A DNA stretch of 64,000 bases from Botryllus schlosseri (Eukaryota): positions 24,678,001 through 24,742,000 of the forward strand of contig CM119372.1 in assembly GCA_051294905.1 (NCBI GenBank). Reading direction: 5' to 3'. Below, one piece after another: positions 8,272 through 64,000 of the stretch; position 1 is the first letter of the stretch; the number at the start of each line of letters is the position of its first letter. The translations under genes were made by a program, and so were the position numbers. The notes below the pieces were generated by a model, which saw nothing but the letters and a program-made list of their open reading frames with translations, was not told where the DNA came from and ran no database searches.

Positions 8272-9570
8272 TTAAAACTGACCTCGGAATTGATTTTCAT
8301 ACTCTTCGTCTTCTGATAGAGGTTCTTCAATGTAGTTGAATAAAGTGTCGACTAAGATTTCCATGCAACCAGTTTCGTGTTTAACCAACCCCTCGCATCG
8401 TATAGTCTCTTTCAAAAATCTTATCGGCAACATCTCAAGCTTCAAATGGCGGAACAATTCAGGAAAGAACTTCGTCCTGTCATCGGAATTGTGCTTCACC
8501 CATTTAATGATCGCATTCCATTTCAATTCCTCTGACTTCACTTCGAATGAGCTCACGAGCATTGCAAAATCTTCCTTAGAAAGCCCAACAAATTCTGGTT
8601 CAGCAATTAATGATTGGAAATTTCTCTTCATAAAGGAAGCAATTATGTTTTTCGAATCCTTATTCGGCGCCAATTCATTGAGGTGAAAGCAATTCTTACG
8701 GGATAAATTTTCTCCCACTGTCACCGGATTAGAAAACAGAGCACCGACCACGACAGATTTTATTCTCTGACTTTTCGCAACCAGCGGTTCAGTGAGGACG
8801 GTGTTCAACAGAAAATCAAACGAATATTTTCGAAAGTGTATGTGATCTACTAAATTGCCAAATTTTTCAGCACACCCTTGAGACCAGCACAGGACTGCTT
8901 TCCAACATGTCGTGAATTTAACGTCTGAAATGTAACGGACAAGATCTTTTTTTGTGACGGTTTGAAATAGCTCCAAGTCCGTGGACATGACAATCTCCAA
9001 ATTTTTCATCACCATAACATCAGCTGCTTTTTCTACAACAGGACAGTGAAAGTCTCTAGCCAAGTTCAAGATAGATAGACTGTTCTCGGGGCAAAGTATA
9101 TTCCGCATGAATTCAAGACATTTTTCTTGGAGTCCATAAATTTGTAGGAAGCTGGCAGCATGAAGAATCTTTGAGATTGAGTCCGAGGTGATGTTGCATT
9201 TAAAAGCGTAAATGAATTCTATGCATTGTTCAACAACGTCTGCTTCAATATTATCAATTCTGAGTCGTTTTTCTTCAGCTTCTTTCATATTACAGGAGAA
9301 AAGACTTTTGAAATAACCTGAGTTGGCCGCAAGAATTAATCGATGAGCATTTATTGATTTGTTGCCGACCTCAATCTTAAAGTCGCAAAGGAAATCTTTC
9401 AGCCTCATGCTGTCCACCGATGCTGTTACATGTATCAAGCGATCCAAGTCATCATATTTGCGCATGGTTGTCGAACTAATTCTTATTGCTGAGGCCTTGG
9501 TCACACAAAATTTCCAAGACGCAGAGGACAACTGAGAAGAGATATGTGCTGAGCAAATAATTGCTTGCAT
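8272..9570 (-). CDS. BTB/POZ-BACK domain protein (kelch-like family architecture, no Kelch repeats in the ORF)
   Basis: 432-aa uninterrupted ORF; BTB motif (FLCDFKIEVGNKSINAHRLILAANSGYFKSLF...EQCIEFIY...LHAASFLQIYGLQEKC), a BACK region, then a second BACK-like segment (EFVGLSKEDF...SEELKWNAIIKWVKHNSDDRTKFFPELFRHLKL). Likely start is Met at 9465 (MRKYDD). Confidence 0.85.
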   Translation of the reverse strand: MQAIICSAHISSQLSSASWKFCVTKASAIRISSTTMRKYDDLDRLIHVTASVDSMRLKDFLCDFKIEVGNKSINAHRLILAANSGYFKSLFSCNMKEAEEKRLRIDNIEADVVEQCIEFIYAFKCNITSDSISKILHAASFLQIYGLQEKCLEFMRNILCPENSLSILNLARDFHCPVVEKAADVMVMKNLEIVMSTDLELFQTVTKKDLVRYISDVKFTTCWKAVLCWSQGCAEKFGNLVDHIHFRKYSFDFLLNTVLTEPLVAKSQRIKSVVVGALFSNPVTVGENLSRKNCFHLNELAPNKDSKNIIASFMKRNFQSLIAEPEFVGLSKEDFAMLVSSFEVKSEELKWNAIIKWVKHNSDDRTKFFPELFRHLKLEMLPIRFLKETIRCEGLVKHETGCMEILVDTLFNYIEEPLSEDEEYENQFRGQF

Positions 9571-10230
9571 AGATATAGTGTATCATACTCAACTCGAATT
9601 ACGGCATAATACACTTCACTATCTGTAACCTCAAAACCATTGTCTAAAACTAAGTTCAGATGGTGAAGCGCTCAATGACCCTTAGTACGGCATTTTAGTA
9701 TAGTATGGTATTCAATGACGAATGTTTGTGGATGAAATCTGCATATCAAGTACCTCTTGTACCGTACATGCAATTTCCATCAGGCAAGGTAAACCATCCA
9801 CTCCTAGCAGCTAGCACCACTCGCATACTACTAACTACTGGATGCACACGTTCTTTTCTATTAGTTTACGTCTGCAGTGCCCGTATTGGGGGCAGTGTGA
9901 CGAGAAATGGGACAACGTTTCTTGGCAACCACAGCTGTCGCATAGTCCCGTACTGTGTAGAATAGTAGATTGAGACGATCCCTTTAACCGGCATTGACCG
10001 GTTCCAAGGCGGAAAAGGACTGTGTCAACTTCGCATCTTTCTGAAGGACTATAGACTGCTAGTAACTAGCCTACCGAAGGCCATACTCCAATGAACGACG
10101 TAATTAATTAAACCGTGGTCAAAGCCTGAGTAGCTGAGTGACTTTGGTGGGAACATGGAATACGAAAATACTCTAGCGGGGAATTCCCACGAAGATAAAC
10201 ATGGCAATCAAAACAACCACAAGGTGGAGT

Positions 10231-10770
10231 GGTTGCCAGTAAATTCGGCCCTCCGAGAATATTACCAACCGTTAACATGAATTAATTACATAATTATACT
10301 ATTATTAAGTGATTTGGATGTCAGCGTATGCGTAGATCGCGTAATCGTGGGAGATAGCGCGGATATTCACGGGACCGAATTTACCGATGGGCGAATTTAC
10401 TACTGGAGAATTTTGTATAAAAATGTATTACCAACTATTAATATTAGGATCTTGGTTGTTTTCACACCCTATTTAGCGTCCACTTGCAACGTAATAATTT
10501 TATTTATTACACGAGCTTTCGGAGCTCCGCTCCTTCTTGAGGTGTTGAAATGAAATGAAAAAATGAAAAAAGAATTATTCAACTATTAATATGAATTAAT
10601 TACATAATTATATTATTATCGAGTGATTTGGAGGTCAGGGTATGCTTATATCACACAGTCACGAGAGATAACGCGGATATTTACAGGGCCAAATTTACTG
10701 AGGACCGAATTCAATCGGTAAATTCGGCCCTCGGAGAATTTTGTGTAAAATTGTATTACCAACTATTAAT
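10231..10770. mobile_element. Degenerate/tandem copies of the GGTTGCC-terminated foldback-like family
   Basis: Starts GGTTGCCAGTAAATTCGGCCCT; internal ATGAATTAATTACATAATTATA block duplicated (~10277 and ~10590); related to 12596-13776 and 14189-14397. Confidence 0.6.
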
Positions 10771-12595
10771 CATCATCATCATTGGTTTATTAGCAATTTT
10801 ATCAGTTCAATAGACGATTTCCACTGGCTGCGCATGGGTGGCGCCATTGTTACGAAAGGCTGGCCAGATGTCTGATCGGAGGTTTTGATACTCCATCCCT
10901 TTTGAAGGGGCGTAACGTAGGTCATTATAGTTGTAGATCTATATGTGCCGGTGCCTGCATATAGCATGTAAAAACGAAGCCGAATGGTGTCTCACACCTT
11001 CATTGTTGCGACCCTATGTGCATTATGCAGTAATGAGAGAATGGTGAATGGTACCGGTAGCTTCCATCGCAAAGGACAAGAAGCTATAAAGAAATATTGT
11101 ATTACGTTGGAACATAGGAGAGGTTACCGTGGAAAGGATTTTATTTAAGGTTTGTGTAACACTGGCATATTTGTGAGAAACTTGTTATTTATAACATTCA
11201 TTTCCATCTACTTCTATTATAAATATCATATTATTATGACAATCTGCATATTATTATTGCCTCGACTCCTATTTGTGGTTCTTCTTCTGTTACCTCCACT
11301 GAGCTATATCCTCTGTAAAGATGAGTGCACTGTATTAGTCCACTGCAATAGTTGCGACGAGTAGTATAAGACCTTCACATGTGATTTCATGATTTCCAGT
11401 CAAATTTGTTTATTTTTGACGAAGCAATAAATTGTCAATATGTCTGTAGTTTGTGATTTACATTTCTAGATCACTCAGAGAATATAAGAGTCTGTGAAAG
11501 ACATTTCCACGATAGTGATGATGTCAGGCTTGTCTCAGTCAGTGATTTGCATTACTAGAGCTCTCGGAATACAAAAGTATATGGAAGACAATTCCACGAT
11601 AATAACATCAGGCTAACGCATTGCTGCAGACAGAATACGAGATATGGCTCCGTCCCGGCAGAATACGAGATATTGCTCTGTCCCATCTAAATTTCCATGA
11701 CAAAAGATTTCAGTCGAGCAACACCAAGTGAAGAGAATCTCTGACAGATTATGTGTTGACGTGGATATTTTTCTATATAGTCATAGAGACAGATCCAACC
11801 AGTTTGTACAGCAGGGTTCGCCAACTCAAGGCAACATCGAGACGAAATAAGTCACACACCACAAAAGAACTAGTATTTTATTGAAGGGAAACAAATACAA
11901 CAGAGAATATCTGGATCATGAATATCATTTTATTCTACAGTATGAGTTGAATACGATACCTGACAACAGTTTGCATAACAGTACTATCTGAAAGACATCT
12001 TGTGGGAATCCCTAAGTGGTTTTCTAAGACTCGCAGTCTTGGCAGTATCTGCGCCATCTCACGTCAAGCCAAGATACCCCACCCATTCATATCAGCTGAT
12101 TCTGTCCCGATTAAATGCTGTTACCATCGCCGAAGCTGTCTCAGCTAGTGAGACAGGCCACCCCTGGGTTTTTTCACCCAGATCTGAGGTTTTCGAGCAT
12201 CCCCTGGGTTCGTCAGGTCAATTTTACGCTCGAAAATCAATTATTAGACCAGTAAGATCATAATGTCGTGAAATGTACGTCCTTCAGTTCGAGTTCGCCA
12301 TTGTCGACGGATTCAGCTGTTATTGTAACGGGAGAGTCTGGAGAGACTGTTTACATTCGATAGTTTCACTACTAAAATGAGATGCCTTGCGATGCGATGG
12401 AGCTTCATTGAATGCTGACTGCCAGGCACTTGGCTGCAATCATGTATGTCTTCATCTTTGCAAACTAAAGATTGAATGAGCATATAGGAGTCAATATTGT
12501 TATGCAGTTTTGGGTATGCTACATCAAGATAGGCAATCATCTCCAAATAAGTTTCATGCTGCATTAATGCCAATAAACGAACACAGTAAATCAAT

Positions 12596-13776
12596 GATTA
12601 CCAGTGAACTCGGCACTTGGTGAATTCGGCCGGACGAACTCGGCACTTGGTGAATTCGGCCATTGGTGAACTCGGCCATCGGGAAATTTTGTAATAAAAA
12701 TGCAGTAAATATATATCTCAGATAAAGAAGAATCATGTGCCGTGGTAGATCGCGTAGCGGTCACCATATCATTGGTTACTGGAATGTTTGCCGGTGAACT
12801 CGGCACTAATCTTGAGATATCCTAACCCCAACTTTGACCCTAACCCACCTCCAATCCCCCTTTCCCTCAACCTAATATCCCCCCTTCCCTAACATCCCCC
12901 AACCCTAATCTTGGGATACCCTAACCCACCTCCAATCACCCTTTCCCCAAACCTAATATCCCCCCTTCCCTAACATCCCCCAACCCTAATCTTGGGATAC
13001 CCTAACCCACTTCCAACCTAATACCCCCCCCCTTCCCTAATCTTGGGATACCCTAATCCACCTCCAATCCCCCAACCTAATATCCTCCCTTGCCTAACAT
13101 CCCCAACCCTAATCTTGGGATACCCTAACCCACCTCCAATATCCCTTTCCCCAAACCCTAATATCCCCCTTTCCCCAAACCCTAACATCCCCCTTTCCCC
13201 AACCCTAATATTCCTCTTTCCACCAACCCTAACATCCCCCTTCCAAACCCTAATATCCCCCTTTCCCCAACCCTAATATCCGTCTCTCCGAAAGGCACAA
13301 AAAAAAAACAATTTATTTTGACGTTATAAATTTTTGTTCGTGTTCGTGGGAAACGTTTATTGGTGATCCTTTAAAACTTCGTTATTACATAAAACACAGA
13401 TATTCATCTTCTCAAAAGTCGTCCGTCCGTCCCACGCCAAGTCAAATCAACACTGAGCCGACCACGCGTGGTCGATGTGCGAACGTCTCGTTATCTCCTG
13501 CGCTTGCGCAATCCGTGATCATGTGATCTAATCACGCCGTGACTGCGTGATCTACGTGCCCTGACCTCCTTACAAGATTGACGTATCACTTGATAATACT
13601 ATTATTAGTTTAATAATTCATATTAATAGCTGGTAATACACTTTATTACAAAATTTCCCGATGGCTAAGTTCACCAATGGCCGAATTCACCAATGGCCGA
13701 ATTCACCAAGTGCCGAGTTCACCAAGTGCCGAGTTCGTCCGGCCGAATTCACCAAGTGCCGAGTTCACCGGCAACC
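12596..13776. mobile_element. Foldback-like non-autonomous DNA transposon with modular TIRs and a telomere-like minisatellite core
   Basis: TIRs >100 bp built from ~15-bp TGAA(T/C)TCGGC(ACT/CAT)TGG units; perfect 8-bp TSD AAATCAAT at 12588-12595 and 13777-13784; empty site with a single AAATCAAT at 17276-17283. Confidence 0.9.
12820..13280 (+). repeat. C-rich minisatellite containing CCCTAA (telomere-like) units
   Basis: Repeated CCCTAAC/CCCTAAT/TTGGGATACCCTAACCCACCTCCAAT units with higher-order periodicity, inside the foldback element. Confidence 0.85.
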
Positions 13777-14188
13777 AAATCAATATGTACCGGTACTGTG
13801 TCTGAGAATACTGAAATCCATGTATTCTACAAACATTTTGTAGCCTAATAATCAATGTTCCCTCCCACCACAAAAATGCGACACAATGAATAGACAGGAA
13901 GATGTCGAAGCGACTTGGATTTGGACTTAGAACTATTAAAATGAATTATATCGACCTCGCCCTCCGCCAGATGCCACCCCATTTTGTCGCTTGCGTCTTA
14001 TATTCTCTGCATTACTTTTCATTCCGTGTGCATGCCTCTTATTTACTTCGCCTAGGCTAAGGTGGGTGTCTGATCTTATAATGGCTACTCCAAGTTGTTT
14101 CGACACCTTCCTATCATTTCATTGTATCGCAGTCTTGTGATGTTTTGAAACGATGAAAATATTAATAAACCTGACTGACTGACTGACT

Positions 14189-14397
14189 ATATTACATAAT
14201 TATATTATTATCAATTGATTAGGAGGTTAGGGTTAGGATTAGGGTTATGATTAGGGTTAGGTTAGGATTAAGGTTAGGTTAGGATTAAGGTTAGGTAATG
14301 TTATTGTAACTGTTATTGTTACCCTGGCCCTGGCTGAATTTACCGAGGGCCGAATTAACTGGCCGAATTTACCGAGGGCCTAATTTACTGGAAATCG
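14189..14397. mobile_element. One-ended remnant of the foldback family with degenerate TTAGGG-like repeats (duplicated at ~17688-17896)
   Basis: GGTTAGGGTTAGGATTAGGG... run followed by GAATTTACCGAGGGCC units ending TTTACTGGAAATC (reverse complement of the family terminus). Confidence 0.7.
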
Positions 14398-14928
14398 GTG
14401 GAGTCACAACAGCAATCAGGTATCGGCGCAACAAAGTATTCAACAGCAAAAAACAGACCACCAACTTTCCTATCTTCGCCATTGAAAGTTGGTAAACTAT
14501 TTCAGAATGTAGCACCAGCACTATGTGCACCAGTGCAGTGCGGGCTGACCGGTAGTTCTTGGATTTTTCTACAGCACAATCACACTACGTATTTTGTTAT
14601 CCTTTCATAAATCCAGTATGCACTGCAGTGCATGCCTCTTATTTAAATGCTATAGGCCAAGGTGGGTGTCTGACTAAAATACTACTACAAGTCGTTTCAG
14701 CACCCTTCTATCTTTTCATTTTATCGCAATCTTGTAGTTGTGGTGTATTGATTTGATTATAGAATGTAAACAAGATCTCAAAACCGGATTCAGTAAATTC
14801 TGCGTTCTGCTTACGCAAAAGCAATTCTGAATACAGCCTCAGTGAAGCGGAACGAAGCTGCAAAATCGGTCGTTGCCATTCCATCACAGTGTTCCTTAGA
14901 ACCCTTAGAACGACCCCGTTCCTTAGAA

Positions 14929-17246
14929 CGACCCCGTTACGGCGTATACCGGTAGCAATAACGGGGATCGCGGGTGTGTTACTGGGCTCGGGACCCCGTC
15001 TCTTTGCGACTGCCGCCTGCTCATATGACACTTGCAATCACGGCACAACCAACAACACAAACACCACAAGTCTATGCGGTATAAGATTATATTAATACGA
15101 CACAAGAAACTCATGATAAACGATACTCACGGACACATATAACGCAACCAAGACGATCTACAGGCTAACTCCTATACAATACACACTGCCCAACGCACAG
15201 GAAACTATAACAAATCTCCACACAAGCCTCACGCACACATAGCCTACCCATCAGCCTACCTAGCCAAGCAGCAGCCTTGTCATCTACAAGCGAGTACGAA
15301 CTACCAACGGGGCAACATCACTCCCTAGGTGCTCGCGCAGCACCGTCAGTGACTAGGCCGTGCCCCAGCCTATCCGCGCAGAGATTCCGACCGGTACGTC
15401 CAACTCAAGCCCGCCAATACAAGACCAACTACCTACTTCACGCCCTAACTGCCTAATACCACCACTACTTCACGCTGCTGCCCCAAACTACTAATACTTC
15501 ACGCTACCAAACACAGAGACATACTCACTCGCATCCATCTTCAGCCACGCTCTCAGCCAACTCTCCCAACCAACTCAACTCAACACGCGGTCTCCAGCCA
15601 TCCCACGCGCAACAATATTCCAAACGGAAAATACCGAACATTCTGGAAACCTCGGGTTTCCACACTACCCCGGCCTATTTTGATTGAGATTTCTTCAAAC
15701 TAAATCGAAATCACTAGTTGCCCAATTCCAAAACAGTACGCTCAAGTCTACAAATAGCTTCCAATAACATGAATACGCTTGGCCTCACAGACTGCTCCCC
15801 GACATCAAAGTCCGCCGCACTAGTTCCGACTGCATTCCACAGCTTGCCATGGCCACCGTCCAAGCTGCCCTCGGGTGAATGCGAATCCACCATCAACTAA
15901 TCACGGTTCCCGGAAGGAGACGCCTGATTCTCTGCCGCCGACACACACTGACGAACTTGTCACTTCATCAGTTCCTGAGCCAACCCTGCGCTTCGACACG
16001 GCCCACGCCAGGGCTATCAGTTACGACCCGATGCTCCGCTTGACCAGCAATCCAGCATACACATTTATTGAAGCTTCCGCAATCCGCAATCAACGTCACT
16101 CGCCCAGTTATCTTCAGCCATCCGCCTCTATACTGCACTCCGCCAGCACATAACCCCAGGCTCTGTAACATCTTCAGTTCAAGTGCACGCACATGCACTG
16201 CAGGCACTGGTTACAATTTCTTCACAGCCAATCCACTCACTATAATTGGCCTCCGCTTCGTACTTCGTAGTAGCCAAACCAGTACGAACGCTCGTTCCCA
16301 TTGTTCACGTCATAAAGAATCCACAGAACACTCGGCCACCGCAGACACAATAACAAATAGCTATTCCAAACGTTCCGCCCAAAAAAGCTTCATCTCTCAA
16401 ATACGAATATACGATATACCGGCACTCGATAGTCGACATATTATATGCATGCACAGCAGCGGCAATCACAAAGATAAACAAGGTCCTGGCGTGCTCGCCA
16501 AAATTTGTAGCGACCCCGTTACGGCGTATACCGGTAGCAATAACGGGAATCGCGGGTGTGTTACTGGGCTCGGGACCTCGTCTCTTTGCGACTGCCGCCT
16601 GATCAAACGACACTTGCAATCACGGCACAACCAACAACACAAACACCACAAGTCTATGCGGTATAAGATTATATTAATACGACACAAGAAACTCATGATA
16701 AACGATACTCACGGACACATATAACGCAACCAAGACGATCTATAGGCTAACTCCTATACAATACACACTGCCCAACGCACAGGAAACTATAACAAATCTC
16801 CACACAAGCCTCACGCACACATAGCCTACCCATCAGCCTACCTAGCCAAGCAGCAGCCTTGTCATCTACAAGCGAGTACGAACTACCAACGGGGCAACAT
16901 CACTCCCTAGGTGCTCGCGCAGCACCGTCAGTGACTAGGCCGTGCCCCAGCCTATCCGCGCAGAGATTCCGACCGGTACGACCAACTCAAGCCCGCCAAT
17001 ACAAGACCAACTACCTACTTCACGCCCTAACTGCCTAATACCACCACTACTTCACGCTGCTGCCCCAAACTACTAATACTTCACGCTACCAAACACAGAG
17101 ACATACTCACTCGCATCCATCTTCAGCCACGCTCTCAGCCAACTCTCCCAACCAACTCAACTCAACACGCGGTCTCCAGCCATCCCACGCGCAACAATAT
17201 TCCAAACGGAAAATACCGAACATTCTGGAAACCTCGGGTTTCCACA
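14929..17246 (-). mobile_element. Non-autonomous LTR retroelement (TRIM/LARD-like), minus orientation
   Basis: Intact 741-bp LTR 16506-17246 (TG...CA); second LTR 14929-15664 lacks the terminal 5 bp; ~7 differences between LTRs by eye. PBS at 16484-16500 (+ strand TCCTGGCGTGCTCGCCA, resembling the tRNA-Arg(ACG) 3' end plus CCA). PPT (minus strand AATAGGCCGGGGTAG) abuts the 3' LTR. The ~840-bp internal region has no recognisable gag/pol. Confidence 0.9.
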
Positions 17247-18401
17247 CTGCATTAATGCCAATAAACGAACACAGTAAATCAATATGTACCGGTACTGTGT
17301 CTGAGAATACTGAAATCCATGTATTCTACAAACATTTTGTAGCCTAATAATCAATGTTCCCTCCCACCACAAAAATGCGACACAATGAATAGACAGGAAG
17401 ATGTCGAAGCGACTTGGATTTGGACTTAGAACTATTAAAATGAATTATATCGACCTCGCCCTCCGCCAGATGCCACCCCATTTTGTCGCTTGCGTCTTAT
17501 ATTCTCTGCATTACTTTTCATTCCGTGTGCATGCCTCTTATTTACTTCGCCTAGGCTAAGGTGGGTGTCTGATCTTATAATGGCTACTCCAAGTTGTTTC
17601 GACACCTTCCTATCATTTCATTGTATCGCAGTCTTGTGATGTTTTGAAACGATGAAAATATTAATAAACCTGACTGACTGACTGACTATATTACATAATT
17701 ATATTATTATCAATTGATTAGGAGGTTAGGGTTAGGATTAGGGTTATGATTAGGGTTAGGTTAGGATTAAGGTTAGGTTAGGATTAAGGTTAGGTAATGT
17801 TATTGTAACTGTTATTGTTACCCTGGCCCTGGCTGAATTTACCGAGGGCCGAATTAACTGGCCGAATTTACCGAGGGCCTAATTTACTGGAAATCGGTGG
17901 AGTCACAACAGCAATCAGGTATCGGCGCAACAAAGTATTCAACAGCAAAAAACAGACCACCAACTTTCCTATCTTCGCCATTGAAAGTTGGTAAACTATT
18001 TCAGAATGTAGCACCAGCACTATGTGCACCAGTGCAGTGCGGGCTGACCGGTAGTTCTTGGATTTTTCTACAGCACAATCACACTACGTATTTTGTTATC
18101 CTTTCATAAATCCAGTATGCACTGCAGTGCATGCCTCTTATTTAAATGCTATAGGCCAAGGTGGGTGTCTGACTAAAATACTACTACAAGTCGTTTCAGC
18201 ACTCTTCTATCTTTTCATTTTATCGCAATCTTGTAGTTGTGGTGTATTGATTTGATTATAGAATGTAAACAAGATCTCAAAACCGGATTCAGTAAATTCT
18301 GCGTTCTGCTTACGCAAAAGCAATTCTGAATACAGCGTCAGTGAAGCGGAACGAAGCTGCAAAATCGGTCGTTGCCATTCCATCACAGTGTTCCTTAGAA
18401 C
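17247..18401 (+). repeat. Copy 2 of the ~1.15-kb direct duplication (uninterrupted)
   Basis: Begins on the base after the intact LTR end; near-identical to copy 1 but lacks the foldback insertion. Confidence 0.95.
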
Positions 18402-18621
18402 ACTATGATTCCATGTTTACATTCTATAATTTGATAAAATTTTCAATAAAATGATGATGATGATAGCATAGCACGTTGTAAATAGCTATGATGCTAGTGA
18501 TGACCTTAGATTAAGATGGTGATGACGTGATGCGATACACAGGACACAATTCGATGCAATGAACATACAGGAGATGTCTAAACGATGATGAAGGTTTTCT
18601 CAATCCAACATCAACCTATAG

Positions 18622-20727
18622 CAGAGGTGGTCAGTAACGAAGTACTTCTACTTTTTGGAAGTACTCAAGTAGTTTTCCTCTACTTCTGGTACTTAGTCAA
18701 GTAGATCTGGTTTTCTCTACTTCTACTTCGTAATATTTTGCGATCTACTTACTTACTTTTCGCTATTTACGCAGTTTGTCAAGTAGAATTAGTTTGATCC
18801 CCCAATACGAAAGATAGCCTGAGGAATGTCGGGGCTGTTTTCTCGGAGTACCAACATTTAATATTCATAAAAGTCAAATAAAGCCCATACATTTTGTTGC
18901 GCTTCGCGCACAGCAGTTATGGAGTGACAATTATGTTTTCACGAAAGTATCAGTGAATATAATTTAGGTACCGGATTGCTTGGTTCCGCTCACACCCCAT
19001 TGTCGCCCATATCAAGCATTTCGAGTAAATATGGCCTCCCATAACGTTTGAAACTACCGTTTCGTAATCTAGCAATTACCCATCATATGGTAATCTAGCA
19101 GCCCATGACGTGTCCTGCTAATCTGGAAAATACGACTTTTTTAACGTTACACCTGTTTCAGCAGATCCCTTTTGAAGCTTTATGGACAAAAGACATGAAA
19201 TATATTTTACGCGCTTTTTAGAAGTGGTATTTGTATTTCACTTTCAATTCTGGGTATCATACATTGAGTTCTATTTTCTAAATGGCAAATTTGTTTTACT
19301 TAAAAACCTAAAAAATTAAAATTTGACATTTTTTGACCTTAACAAACTTAATTTTGACCAAATTTTGACCTAACGTATGAAAATTAGGTGTTTGTCCACA
19401 TAATGTTAGAATTGCACTACTTATCATCATTTCTGGTTCGAACTGTCTGTCCTTACGAATTAGTTCGGCCTGAAAAAACTTTTTTTACTCAAAAACTTTT
19501 TCATAAAAAACTTGATTTTAACGAAATCTGTCCCTATGAAAAATTTCAGTAGTTACATCACGCATTGTGGTAAAAATAACTAAAATCTGTAGTAGTACAA
19601 CGAAAGATACTTTCCTACATTCTCGGGTAGAAGGTACGTAGCCTACGTGTCTGTCCTTACTAAGTAGCTATAAGCTAGAACGTTCAACAGTAGCAGTTGT
19701 TGGCTGACAACACTGAAGTTGTGCGTGCGTACACTGCTGGTGACACACCGTGTTGCTTCATTCTGACAATGGTGTCTACGTCACAATTTTTCATAATGCG
19801 CTTCTTGATCTAAGAACCATGCAATGTCCACGCAGTCTTGCTTCAGTTATAGGATATTGCGTAACGTTGAGCATAACACCATATCAACCGATTTGTTTTA
19901 TTTGAATGTTTCTGATTCACAATGGGCTGTCTACAACGGTAGGTCTATAAAGTAGGCTACAAGCCCTAAAATGTCAAATGATAAGTTCCCCGACAGAACA
20001 AAATCTACGATACAAACGAAATGCAGGTTGTAAATTTTTTTTTTAATTGTAAACAATTTTGACATTTTTTGACCTAACGCTACAATTCTGACCTAATTTT
20101 GACTTTTTTTGACATGTCAGTTCGTTTGTCTGCAGAACATATACATGTTGAAGCATGGATGCAAGTGTAGTAATGCCTCTATTTTCCAAAAATAAACCTA
20201 CACTAAATACAACTTTTACGATTCAAAATATTTGTTATTAACGTATACTAATCCCGCAAAGAGATGAAACCGTATTCGATACAACTTCTACGTATTGCTC
20301 TTCGCCTGAACTTGGGACCTTATAATATGGGGTTGGGCGCCATGCCATGATATTCTCTAAAACGGGGTCTTCTAGTAAACAAAGGGTTAGTATCGCATTT
20401 TCATATCAATACTATAATTTGCATCCCATGATGCGAAAGAATGCTTATTCAGTCGAAAATTGATAACTCCTGGGATGCATCAATACGAATCAAGGTCTCT
20501 TCACCTTCCGCATAGCTCAATTCGCAGCTTTTTACAGTCGATGCGAATTTAAGACTGTTTTCAAAACTACTTACTTGCTTAAGTAGATTTAAAGTCAGTA
20601 AATTCTACTTCAAGTAGTTTTAGGTGGCTTATGGAAGAAGTACTTCTACTCGTACTTGAGTATATTTTTTTCGTCGTTACTTCCACTTCTACTTGAGTAG
20701 CTTTCTTGACTACTTTGACCACCTCTG
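18622..20727. mobile_element. 2.1-kb non-autonomous hAT element with Tol2-like termini
   Basis: TIRs CAGAGGTGGTCA / TGACCACCTCTG; subterminal AAGTA/TACTT arrays; 8-bp TSD ACCTATAG / GCCTATAG (1 mismatch). Remnants of the same family near 3903, 26440, 34053 and 39155. Confidence 0.85.
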
Positions 20728-21649: not shown

Positions 21650-39784
<18,135 letters not shown>

Positions 39785-40695: not shown

Positions 40696-53876
<13,181 letters not shown>

Positions 53877-56185
53877 TTGTAACAGTGTTGCTACGAGAGT
53901 TATCTGCCTATGATTTTACATTATGAACGTGTATATTTCTGTAAGAATTCGGTGAACTACTCGGCCATAACTATCAGCTTTGACAATGCGACATTACATA
54001 GGCTACATCTGCCTCAGTTACATACTAAACGTACAGCGTACAAGTAAGCGGTATATCCTGCTTGAACTTGCGAAGCGTAGAATATCGAATGTGTGTGTGT
54101 ACACAAGCCCATAAAAGATTATCGGGAGTGGTCGTGTGGTATACGCGAAGACACCTTTCATATCAACCCATTCGTAAACATTCCGAGTTCGAGAAATATT
54201 CCCCGATTGTTTACCACTATAGTGAGTAAATCACGGCGAGTAAATCCTATATTCGAGGAGTTGTTGCCTTTGTCATTGTTAGCACCTTACCGCATTACCA
54301 GTAATCACGGAACTCTAATACGTGTGAGGTGATTAGGCTATGAGCAATGCGTATGCTGATGAAATTAAGCCTACTAACTATATTTACTATGACCTGTCAT
54401 ACTCGTATACATTATCCCTCGTATAGTGAACGTCAAACTATCAATTCGAAATTGATCAAAACTAGTCAAAGCAAAATATTTTGGTGTTCCATCGTCTTTT
54501 ATAGGAAAGTATGCACTTATCTTATCGTTATATGGCTTGACAGGATATGCGTCCAAGAGGGCTGGGACAAGAGTCACATCAGTCACATTCGTGTATCTAT
54601 TTGCCGCAGTCGCCAAGTGTTTTCGTCCCCATCACGCCCCTATTCCACCTTGCACGGATATTTTTAGCTCGGACAGGTGAAAGGAGAATTAACTAGTATT
54701 ATCGAAATTATCTAATCTTGAATGTAACTCCGTGTTTCATTAGGATACCTATAATATTGTGCTGTTTTGTACATTGTATTTTAGACTTACATTATTATCA
54801 ATGGTTCTTGACCGACCTATCTGTAATTACTCCCATCAAGGTAATTTGCTATTCCTTGAGGGGTAATTTGACCACATTCATTCAATGCCTATTATTCACA
54901 ATTGATTCTCAGAATGCTTATGGTCGAGATATCGATTCCGAATGTCCCCACTACTTTATAATTACTATGTTTCGGAACTAGTTTTGTGTCTGAAACTACA
55001 AAAATCTAGCTTTGTATTGGGGCTAATAGTGCAGCCTTTTTCAGAACTGCGTCAAGATATTCAATTCCATACCCCTCATATTATTGATGTGAAGTGTACG
55101 ATTTTTCGGCAATGGCATCTATATAAAAACAAAACACCGCAACAAGCTTACATTCGACGATGATACGTGTGCTACTCCGAATTTCCTCCAGGCTTGCTAA
55201 ATTTGACATCTTACTGGCAGAAGAGCAAAATCAGCTTTTTGTTGAAAGTACTCTTGAATGAAATTTATGACCTCATAATTATATTCATTATTGAAATGAG
55301 GGTAATTGAAGTTCATGTTGTTCTTCTCGGTGGTAATGATAGGCAGTGTAAAGAACACTGGTCTATATCATGAACTATATAACAGGAAAAGCAACATCAC
55401 AGTAGTGATCGACAGGATATGCGTCAATGCGTGTTGATAAGATAATGTCTACATTCCAGAATTGTACATATTTCCATATCTGCGTGTTGCGACATCTCAC
55501 TGTTGGCGCAGCTGTCCTGAACCCTGCCTGCACTTCGGACGGTCGCGGTTCGTTTGAATTCTGAAATCGTGGCAAGAGCCGAACATTTCTGGCATACTGA
55601 TCGATGTGCAATCGTCACGGACGAATGGCCCAACTAGTATGTTGTCAATTTATATCGTGAATAATTTATGTGAAGGACACCGTGACCTTTTCGATATATA
55701 TATAAATATCGATTCACAACATTTTCTATTGAATTTCAGTAGCCTCCCTATAGTCAATTATTATGTATGCTTACCAATATTCTAAACAGAACATGACTTG
55801 AAAGACGTTGGACTTGGATTCATACCAGACACAATATTACATATTTCCATATTGGTAACGTAGGCCTATAATCTCAGTATTCAGCTGTAGCCCACGCGTA
55901 CGTCATACGATCGGTTTTATACCTAACTTGGGCTCTGCAGCTCAAATATGTGCATGTGCATGTGTATAGAACAGGGTCGGCAACCTTTCGTGCAGCGTTC
56001 GAAAAACGGGCTGCGACACCGGGAACTAGGCCGAGGTGGATGCCAGTTTAAGAGACCGCAACTGCAACCGCACTGGGTCGTTCGGCATCCTCCCATCTGT
56101 TCCTTACATCGCATTGTGTCTTATCGGATTGTACATTGTGTGTGTATTGTTCAGATAAAAATATAATCTGACGATTATCTTATCT

Positions 56186-62381: not shown

Positions 62382-62463
62382 GTTGTCGTGGCCGAGTGGT
62401 TAAGGCGACAGACTAGAAATCTGTTGGGCTCTGCCCGCGCAGGTTCGAATCCTGCCGACAACG
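62382..62463 (+). tRNA. tRNA-Ser, anticodon AGA
   Basis: Acceptor stem GTTGTCG/CGACAAC plus discriminator G; D-arm TGGCCGAGTGGTTAAGGC; anticodon arm ACAGA-CTAGAAA-TCTGT; long variable arm; GGTTCGAATCC; T-run terminator downstream; 82 nt. Confidence 0.97.
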
Positions 62464-64000
62464 CGTATTTTCTTTTCTCATTTCTGAGAACGTTCGACCG
62501 CATGTTTGAATAAAATTTTGCAACATATCAAAACTAACAAATTGCTAGCCTCTCAGCATTATTTTCATCTTATATATTACCGAACACTATTTTTCCGTGC
62601 TTTTGTTTCGGATTTGGGAATGACGACCAGGAATATCATATTCCAGTTGTTAGTTTCTAGCTCCAAATTGCTCTGCTTCATCCACTAATCAGTGGTTCGA
62701 ATCATAATAATCCTCAGATCATATATTTTCATCCGCCCAAGACACACAAAACGTATAATGCGAATACAAGAGAAAAATGCGATGTAATGAACAGACGAAG
62801 GATGCCGAAACGGCAAGTTGTGGCCTCGATCCAGCCCGATCTACTGCCCGATTTCACAATGTTAGCCGCAATGTCGATGTCACAATGTTAATGTTCGAAC
62901 TTGATTTTTTCGCGTCTGGCATTCTATTTAGATTGCTCTTCCTTTATCTTTTTCGTTTAATTCATTGTTCCGTTCGTCTTCGGGTGCTTCCTATGGGCTT
63001 TTCTGACTTCGTAAGAACTAGCGACACAGGGGAAGAGCAGCTCAGATATAGTCTAACGCAGTTTGCGGTGGTTAATTGAAGGAAGTAATCATTACGCTAT
63101 CTCACCTGAACGTTGTTAGCTGACGATAAAACCGGTGGATCTTCAAATATCAAAATCAACCCAATACGGAAGCTAATTACGACAGAAGTATGCAAGCGAA
63201 AACGGAGGTTACAGACCAGGTGTCGCCAACTCAAAATGGGTCGCGGGCCACTTTCGTAACTTGATAGACGCCCCGGGCCGCATAATTGTAATGTCGAGAT
63301 TGTCGGCATCTAATATCTGGCACCTGATTAGCTATTGGCAAAGGTGAAAAGGCACTATATTGACTATAACTATATCAATGTAGCGTGTTGTTGTCTAACA
63401 CGCGTGGTACACATTGTTAAAAAGAATCACTGATTCACTGCTTACATTTAATTACGATTAATACAACTCTATCAAATATATGTATTGAGCTTGATGTATA
63501 TTGTGTAGCATACCTCGCACCCGATATCTGACCGCAAGTACTTTACTGCGACATGATGGTGATACGCCGTTTATTTTCTGGCGTCAAGACCGATTGGAGA
63601 TGCTCTGTCGGTCGCGAGCGTACGGCAGATCCATTAGGCTAGTGATTCCCATTTTTTAGTTCAAATTTAGTTCAATAAACCATGCAACCGTCTTGTGCAA
63701 ATATTAACTGTACGCTATAGTGATAAACAACAAAAAATGACCTGTCTTTAAAATAATATCATTCTATTGTTGCAGCAAACAATACGTTCATATTGTTAAA
63801 TTTATTCCACTGGAAGCTTTTCGACTGGCTCTCTTGAGCAGAGATGCCACTGGGATATTTCGGAAAAACCCAGATGTGGAGTCGAAATAAACCCAGAAAA
63901 ACCCAGATCCTATATTTCACTCAAAAGACACGAGATAGCTGTGAAAGTGGAGCCTGATAGTCGTCGAATACACTCATACAGTCATTGAAGCCTTTGATAT

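Follow-up and report, generated by a model that had tools for sequence, protein, structure and literature searches.

An LTR retrotransposon in the genome assembly of Botryllus schlosseri is flanked on either side by a copy of the same 1,155-bp host segment, and this arrangement is best read as the product of a one-ended integration, in which the integrase joined one end of the element and host repair joined the other. We consider this reading probable. The locus lies in a window of 64,000 nucleotides (the whole stretch of DNA analysed; contig CM119372.1 of assembly GCA_051294905.1) and is ordered as a left host copy holding a TIR element, a 27-nt insert, the LTR element and a right host copy (Table 1). 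When the right copy is aligned with the two parts of the left copy, exactly two mismatches are found (14704/18203 and 14838/18337). A duplication of about 1.15 kb on either side of the element, with two substitutions detected by eye, had been put forward in the original prediction, and the alignment bears out both its extent and the count. The window contains no N, and hence no gap. No gene was seen to be affected by the duplication, which represents one event at a single locus.

Table 1. Positions of the features at the duplicated locus, numbered within the window
Feature	Positions	Strand	Remarks
Left copy, first 37 bp	12559–12595	+	identical to 17247–17283
TIR element, 1,181 bp, non-coding	12596–13776		left copy only
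Left copy, other 1,118 bp	13785–14902	+	2 mismatches against 17284–18401
27-nt patchwork insert	14903–14929		host-end 9-mer, LTR-end 9-mer, host-end 9-mer
3' LTR, 736 bp, U5 end 5 nt short	14929–15664	-	99.05% to other LTR
Internal region, 841 bp	15665–16505	-	purine-rich tract and PBS-like site; no recognised coding domain
5' LTR, 741 bp, TG...CA	16506–17246	-	U3 end flush with host
Right copy, 1,155 bp	17247–18401	+	mostly high-copy repeat fragments
Hairpin with flanking repeats	18377–18414		hairpin at 18384–18407

The element (14929–17246; 2,318 bp, minus strand, non-coding) is a non-autonomous LTR retrotransposon of a dispersed family, as indicated by its LTRs, its purine-rich tract, the lack of gag/pol capacity and the variants present in public sequencing runs. 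Its direct repeats are bounded by TG...CA, with three of the four LTR ends canonical and one 5 nt short. A PBS-like site beginning with TGG (about 16483–16500) lies 5 nt past the 5' LTR and is laid out like the 3' end of a tRNA; it may be complementary to tRNA-Arg. It does not match the tRNA-Ser of the window, and none of its three metagenome matches is a tRNA gene. The purine-rich tract, interrupted by pyrimidines, adjoins the 3' LTR and ends in a run of G 3 nt before it. These two signals place the element on the minus strand, which makes the end at 17246 the U3 end and the short end the U5 end. The region is overlapped by 22 open reading frames of at least 60 aa, and none of the five element frames tested had a match in Pfam; together with the paired LTRs and the purine-rich tract, this result supports the earlier description of a non-autonomous retroelement. 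The LTR-end pattern had no match among metagenome contigs. Self-priming of the Tf1 type was rejected: the longest inverted match between the PBS and the element's own LTR is 6 nt, and 92 of 100 shuffles gave a duplex at least as stable as the best one (-18.4 kcal/mol).

Public contigs confirm the LTR family. Seventeen runs were listed, the best of which contains 0.55 of the words of 11500–19500, and they probably derive from other individuals; four of them (X1, X2, X4 and X10, representing two samples) were compared over 15670–19200 only. Among the contigs listed, the LTR end runs on into the internal region in X2, X4 and X10, and variants of the element are present in all four runs. One internal contig of X10 reaches a depth of 3,387, whereas unique-looking contigs have about 80, depth not being equivalent to copy number, and internal deletions of 94 and 125 bp occur in public contigs (region 15670–16500). 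These data hint that the element family is variable and recently active, and a recent burst in one lineage is possible. Relative to unique contigs, the depth of the internal region is several-fold apart between the two samples (15670–16500; X2, X4 and X10).

No TSD flanks the LTR pair at any of the three lengths tested (4, 5 or 6 bp); the 4–6-bp duplication on both sides by which a normal integrase insertion is recognised is absent from the locus. At the clean junction (17246|17247), the duplication begins at the first base past the CA of the intact LTR. At the U5 junction, 5 nt of the LTR have been lost, and the breakpoint lies at most 6 bp from the LTR end, for which a random break in the 2,318-bp element gives p = 0.0026. 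Both positions favour one-ended integration. The clean end abutting the duplication and the 5-nt loss had been described correctly in the original prediction, which did not include the 27-nt insert found between the left copy and the truncated LTR.

Read in order, this insert repeats the terminal 9 nt of the host copy, then the 9 nt with which the truncated LTR begins, and then the host 9-mer a second time; its last base (14929) is shared with the LTR. Within the window, the host 9-mer is found only at 14894, 14903, 14921 and 18393, and the LTR 9-mer on the plus strand only at 14912, 14930 and 16512. Four template switches can be traced, with microhomologies of 0, 1, 3 and 1 nt (three of the four with 1–3 nt). 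All 27 nt map at most 12 nt from the two joined ends, which also speaks for one-ended integration, as does the shared starting point of both LTR-derived pieces at the truncated end of the LTR, which is what a free end there would produce. The scar suggests a patchwork of the kind made by polymerase theta.

The clean end could itself be a microhomology joint, given that the 2 nt past it match both the host and the element's own PPT-side internal flank (chance 0.063). This ambiguity counts against one-ended integration and favours an integrase-independent capture, in which DNA broken spontaneously would have given rise to a tandem duplication, with a complete linear cDNA patched into its junction by end-joining at both ends. 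Such a capture is also compatible with the patchwork at the other end and with the size of the duplication, which is typical of repair-made duplications in the sections of PMC8654963 considered here. However, the U3 end lost no LTR bases and stops at the CA used by integrase, end-joining would have trimmed and patched the other end only, and the 2-nt match may be a matter of chance (1/16). Capture is accordingly improbable in our judgement.

High-copy repeat makes up most of the duplicated segment, and low depth in all four runs is confined to the bin 17912–18029. Relative to contigs taken as single-copy, the depth of the unique core is 1.56 in X1, 1.13 in X2, 1.46 in X4 and 0.93 in X10, where the reference contigs were hand-picked, higher-depth contigs were excluded as presumed multi-copy, and depth does not equal copy number; these ratios support no conclusion. 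In X10, a contig runs unbroken over 18354–18647, across 18401|18402, with a depth of 80.5 compared with 78.7 inside the segment; this hints weakly at a single-copy allele, relating to the right flank only and to contigs that drop rare variants. Coverage holes at 17280 and 18386 in X1, X2 and X4 prove nothing. Neither element junction appears among the contigs listed for the four runs, which gives no evidence either way. An assembly artefact, with merged haplotypes or a chimeric read producing a false duplication, would account for this absence as well as for the window letters at 15749 and 15755, which occur in no contig listed from any of the four runs. Against it stand the limited extent of the contigs listed and the incomplete match to runs that are probably from other individuals. 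Only 1 nt is common to the joined ends, which leaves an assembler no overlap on which to merge them, and misassembly is therefore given very little probability. The structured, templated insert likewise favours a real repair joint, and the two differences between the copies and the lack of any gap in the window also count against an artefact.

Under one-ended integration, a non-autonomous LTR cDNA would have been mobilised by an autonomous partner, and the integrase would have joined its U3 end only, before the base now found at 12559 and 17247. This junction is observed, and its CA end points to the enzyme. Such half-joining would leave two ends free, the host 3' end at 12558 and the U5 end of the element. 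One of the two, either the host end or the element end (the latter running back to the site of integration), would then be extended and so copy the 1,155-bp interval once. The free U5 end, shortened by 5 nt, would be attached at a distance of 1,155 bp after repeated rounds of priming on 0–3 nt of microhomology. This priming, presumably by polymerase theta, would leave the 27-nt patchwork seen in the sequence. The TIR element would have inserted afterwards, or the left copy would have been templated from a homologue already carrying it. An extra step, a short gene conversion from a family member, would be needed for the clustered differences between the LTRs. The half-site integration originally proposed is thus favoured as the best explanation and is strengthened by the templated insert, whereas the LTR divergence and the 2-nt ambiguity keep it short of proof; that the case consists of a single locus also weighs against it.

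Between the two LTRs, 7 of 736 positions differ, compared with 2 of 1155 between the duplicates (Fisher p = 0.033). This contrast is a difficulty for one-ended integration: in excerpts of PMC6894440 and PMC5668417, newly made copies have identical LTRs, recombinants included. Near the U5 end, five of the seven LTR differences are packed into 61 bp (p = 0.003). Outside this cluster, the LTRs differ at 2 of 675 positions, which is not distinguishable from the 2 of 1155 in the duplicates (p = 0.63) and agrees with one-ended integration. At 16602, the only cluster site among those listed, the family majority carries the letter of the 3' LTR in all four runs, with a remainder that also exists, and this difference may be a family polymorphism rather than a sign of age. 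The cluster would most simply be explained if a short tract had been gene-converted by another copy of the family, at the cost of an added step.

The same divergence can be approached through an older element that inserted normally at 12559 and suffered a later break at its U5 boundary, the broken end being extended on the empty homologue, whose host segment would be copied together with its TIR element, and end-joined to the LTR. One step would then cover the LTR divergence, the patchwork joint and the presence, in a single copy, of a TIR element whose arms have diverged, and the scheme matches the extension-then-end-joining model of ~1-kb duplications set out in the relevant parts of PMC8654963. 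Nevertheless, the break would have to fall at most 6 bp from the LTR end (p = 0.0026 if random within the element), the concentration of five of seven LTR differences in 61 bp (p = 0.003) is unlike clock-like ageing, and the TSD remnant beside the 3' LTR is absent. We regard a later break as quite unlikely.

The interruption of the left copy by inserted sequence, also noted originally, is due to the TIR element, whose 8-bp TSD (12588–12595 and 13777–13784) is present once in the right copy (17276–17283). The element has tandem-repeat arms and C-rich, telomere-like internal tandem arrays, and older relatives occur at about 10270–10770 and 14184–14391. It may be a Merlin element, as suggested by its GG-type ends and 8-bp TSD, with one end starting GA. 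Inverted-repeat detection gives arms of about 94 nt at 89%, and the arms differ at about 5 of 104 aligned positions, compared with 2 of 1155 for the duplicates (p = 6e-5). That the insertion followed the duplication is an interpretation rather than an observation. Judged from its arms, the TIR element may predate the duplication, which would count against the preferred reading; alternatively, imperfect arms may be a trait of the family. If the interval was copied from the sister or the same chromatid, the TIR element must be younger than the duplication, whereas copying from the homologue imposes no such requirement. A more specific form of one-ended integration would hold that the half-finished integration acted as a chromosome break, was extended on a homologue bearing the TIR element and the two SNPs, and was closed by polymerase-theta priming, leaving a natural germ-line record. 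This form we consider unlikely.

Aberrant proviruses of ASLV and HIV-1 provide the closest features for comparison. According to excerpts of PMC5041404, they have one normal end and another that is often truncated, with short homology, the host DNA beside them is duplicated over hundreds to thousands of bp, and several host or viral pieces can be added at the unintegrated end; one-ended proviruses of this kind are also summarised in PMC7912079. The present locus shares the clean end, the truncated end, the long host duplication, the short homology and the appended segments, and these matching features support one-ended integration. In contrast, the ASLV and HIV-1 cases covered by those excerpts are somatic and arose in culture through mutant ends, inhibitors or mutant integrase, whereas the present one lies in a genome assembly and involves a non-coding retrotransposon with LTRs that are not identical.

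The other half of the proposed reaction resembles joints made by polymerase theta in C. elegans, for which the sections of PMC8654963 considered describe tandem duplications with a median of ~1 kb, microhomology on the scale of 1 nt and repeated flank-templated pieces. Duplication size, microhomology scale and patchwork pieces are all similar at the Botryllus locus, and this precedent lends further support to one-ended integration. The C. elegans joints, as far as those sections go, involve no retroelement and were shown genetically in mutants, whereas the enzyme at the present locus is suggested by the scar.

Long duplications around LTR elements are also on record from a natural germ line. 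For HERV-K (HML-2), the available part of PMC5488345 gives 451 called TSDs for 622 sites, eight of them longer than 10 bp (13–450 bp), with empty alleles for two of the eight long-TSD loci and a duplication search that stopped at 500 bp. The word "mechanism" has no occurrence in its main text as retrieved, and rearrangement models are offered. In that set, as at the present locus, LTR elements of a natural germ line are flanked by long host duplications; unlike the HERV-K loci in that account, the Botryllus case measures 1,155 bp, concerns an invertebrate-type retrotransposon and has a junction insert that records repair. The phenomenon is already known, including in the natural germ line (PMC5488345, in the part considered), and the present case is a well-preserved example in a new setting, with an informative scar. 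Titles and the openings of abstracts yielded no natural LTR-retrotransposon case with a kb-scale duplication, in a search that left most subscription papers outside its scope and is not proof.

The Bar duplication of Drosophila (203.5 kb) contains a complete roo element and is ascribed, in excerpts of PMC13322080, to crossing-over between two elements. Applied here, family members at 12559 and 18401 on different homologues would have recombined unequally into a chimeric element. The architecture is the same as that of Bar in those excerpts, including a transposable element unique to one copy, and non-identical LTRs would be accounted for. Such crossing-over predicts two intact outer ends, whereas the U5 end at this locus is truncated and patched, and it requires two insertions in the same direction 1,155 bp apart. 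The locus also differs from Bar, as excerpted, in its size of 1.2 kb and its one damaged element end, and we think an origin of the Bar type improbable.

If one-ended integration is real, an aberrant reaction known from culture work with crippled retroviruses takes place in a germ line too, with an invertebrate retrotransposon; its duplication exceeds the 450-bp maximum of the HERV-K list, and its repair scar is still readable. Annotation tools that require a short TSD would miss such loci, which may thus represent an undercounted source of kb-scale duplications. If extension on the homologue is also true, a single insertion would not only duplicate host DNA on the kb scale but also exchange sequence between homologues, with no second element involved, and some "Bar-like" duplications in animals would have been mis-assigned. 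A single event, located in repeat-rich DNA and not seen to affect any gene, settles no open question alone.

The duplication stops at 18401, inside a 24-bp hairpin that lies between 7-bp direct repeats, and the hairpin is cut at 14902 in the left copy. Hairpins of this class make up 0.57% of the window, and the coincidence with the breakpoint was noticed post hoc and is taken as a lead only. Among the public contigs listed, those of the repeat family pass from 18383 directly to the letters at 18415. The hairpin with its flanking repeats is missing from most copies of its host repeat family. In X10, the letter at 18386 makes the stem perfect. The structure is possibly a transposon footprint.

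Elsewhere in the window, Rfam returned a single match, a tRNA far from the locus, namely the tRNA-Ser(AGA) gene at 62382–62464 (+). A single open frame of 436 aa at 8272–9582 (-) contains BTB and BACK domains and has no kelch match, an exon-like frame at 38739–39182 (+) contains ankyrin repeats, and a serine/arginine-rich open frame of 416 aa at 52665–53915 (-) has no Pfam match. An inverted repeat at 32791–33354 has 96-nt arms at 93%, and another at 44061–44480, a young foldback or MITE, has 181-nt arms that are 99% complementary around a 58-nt spacer.
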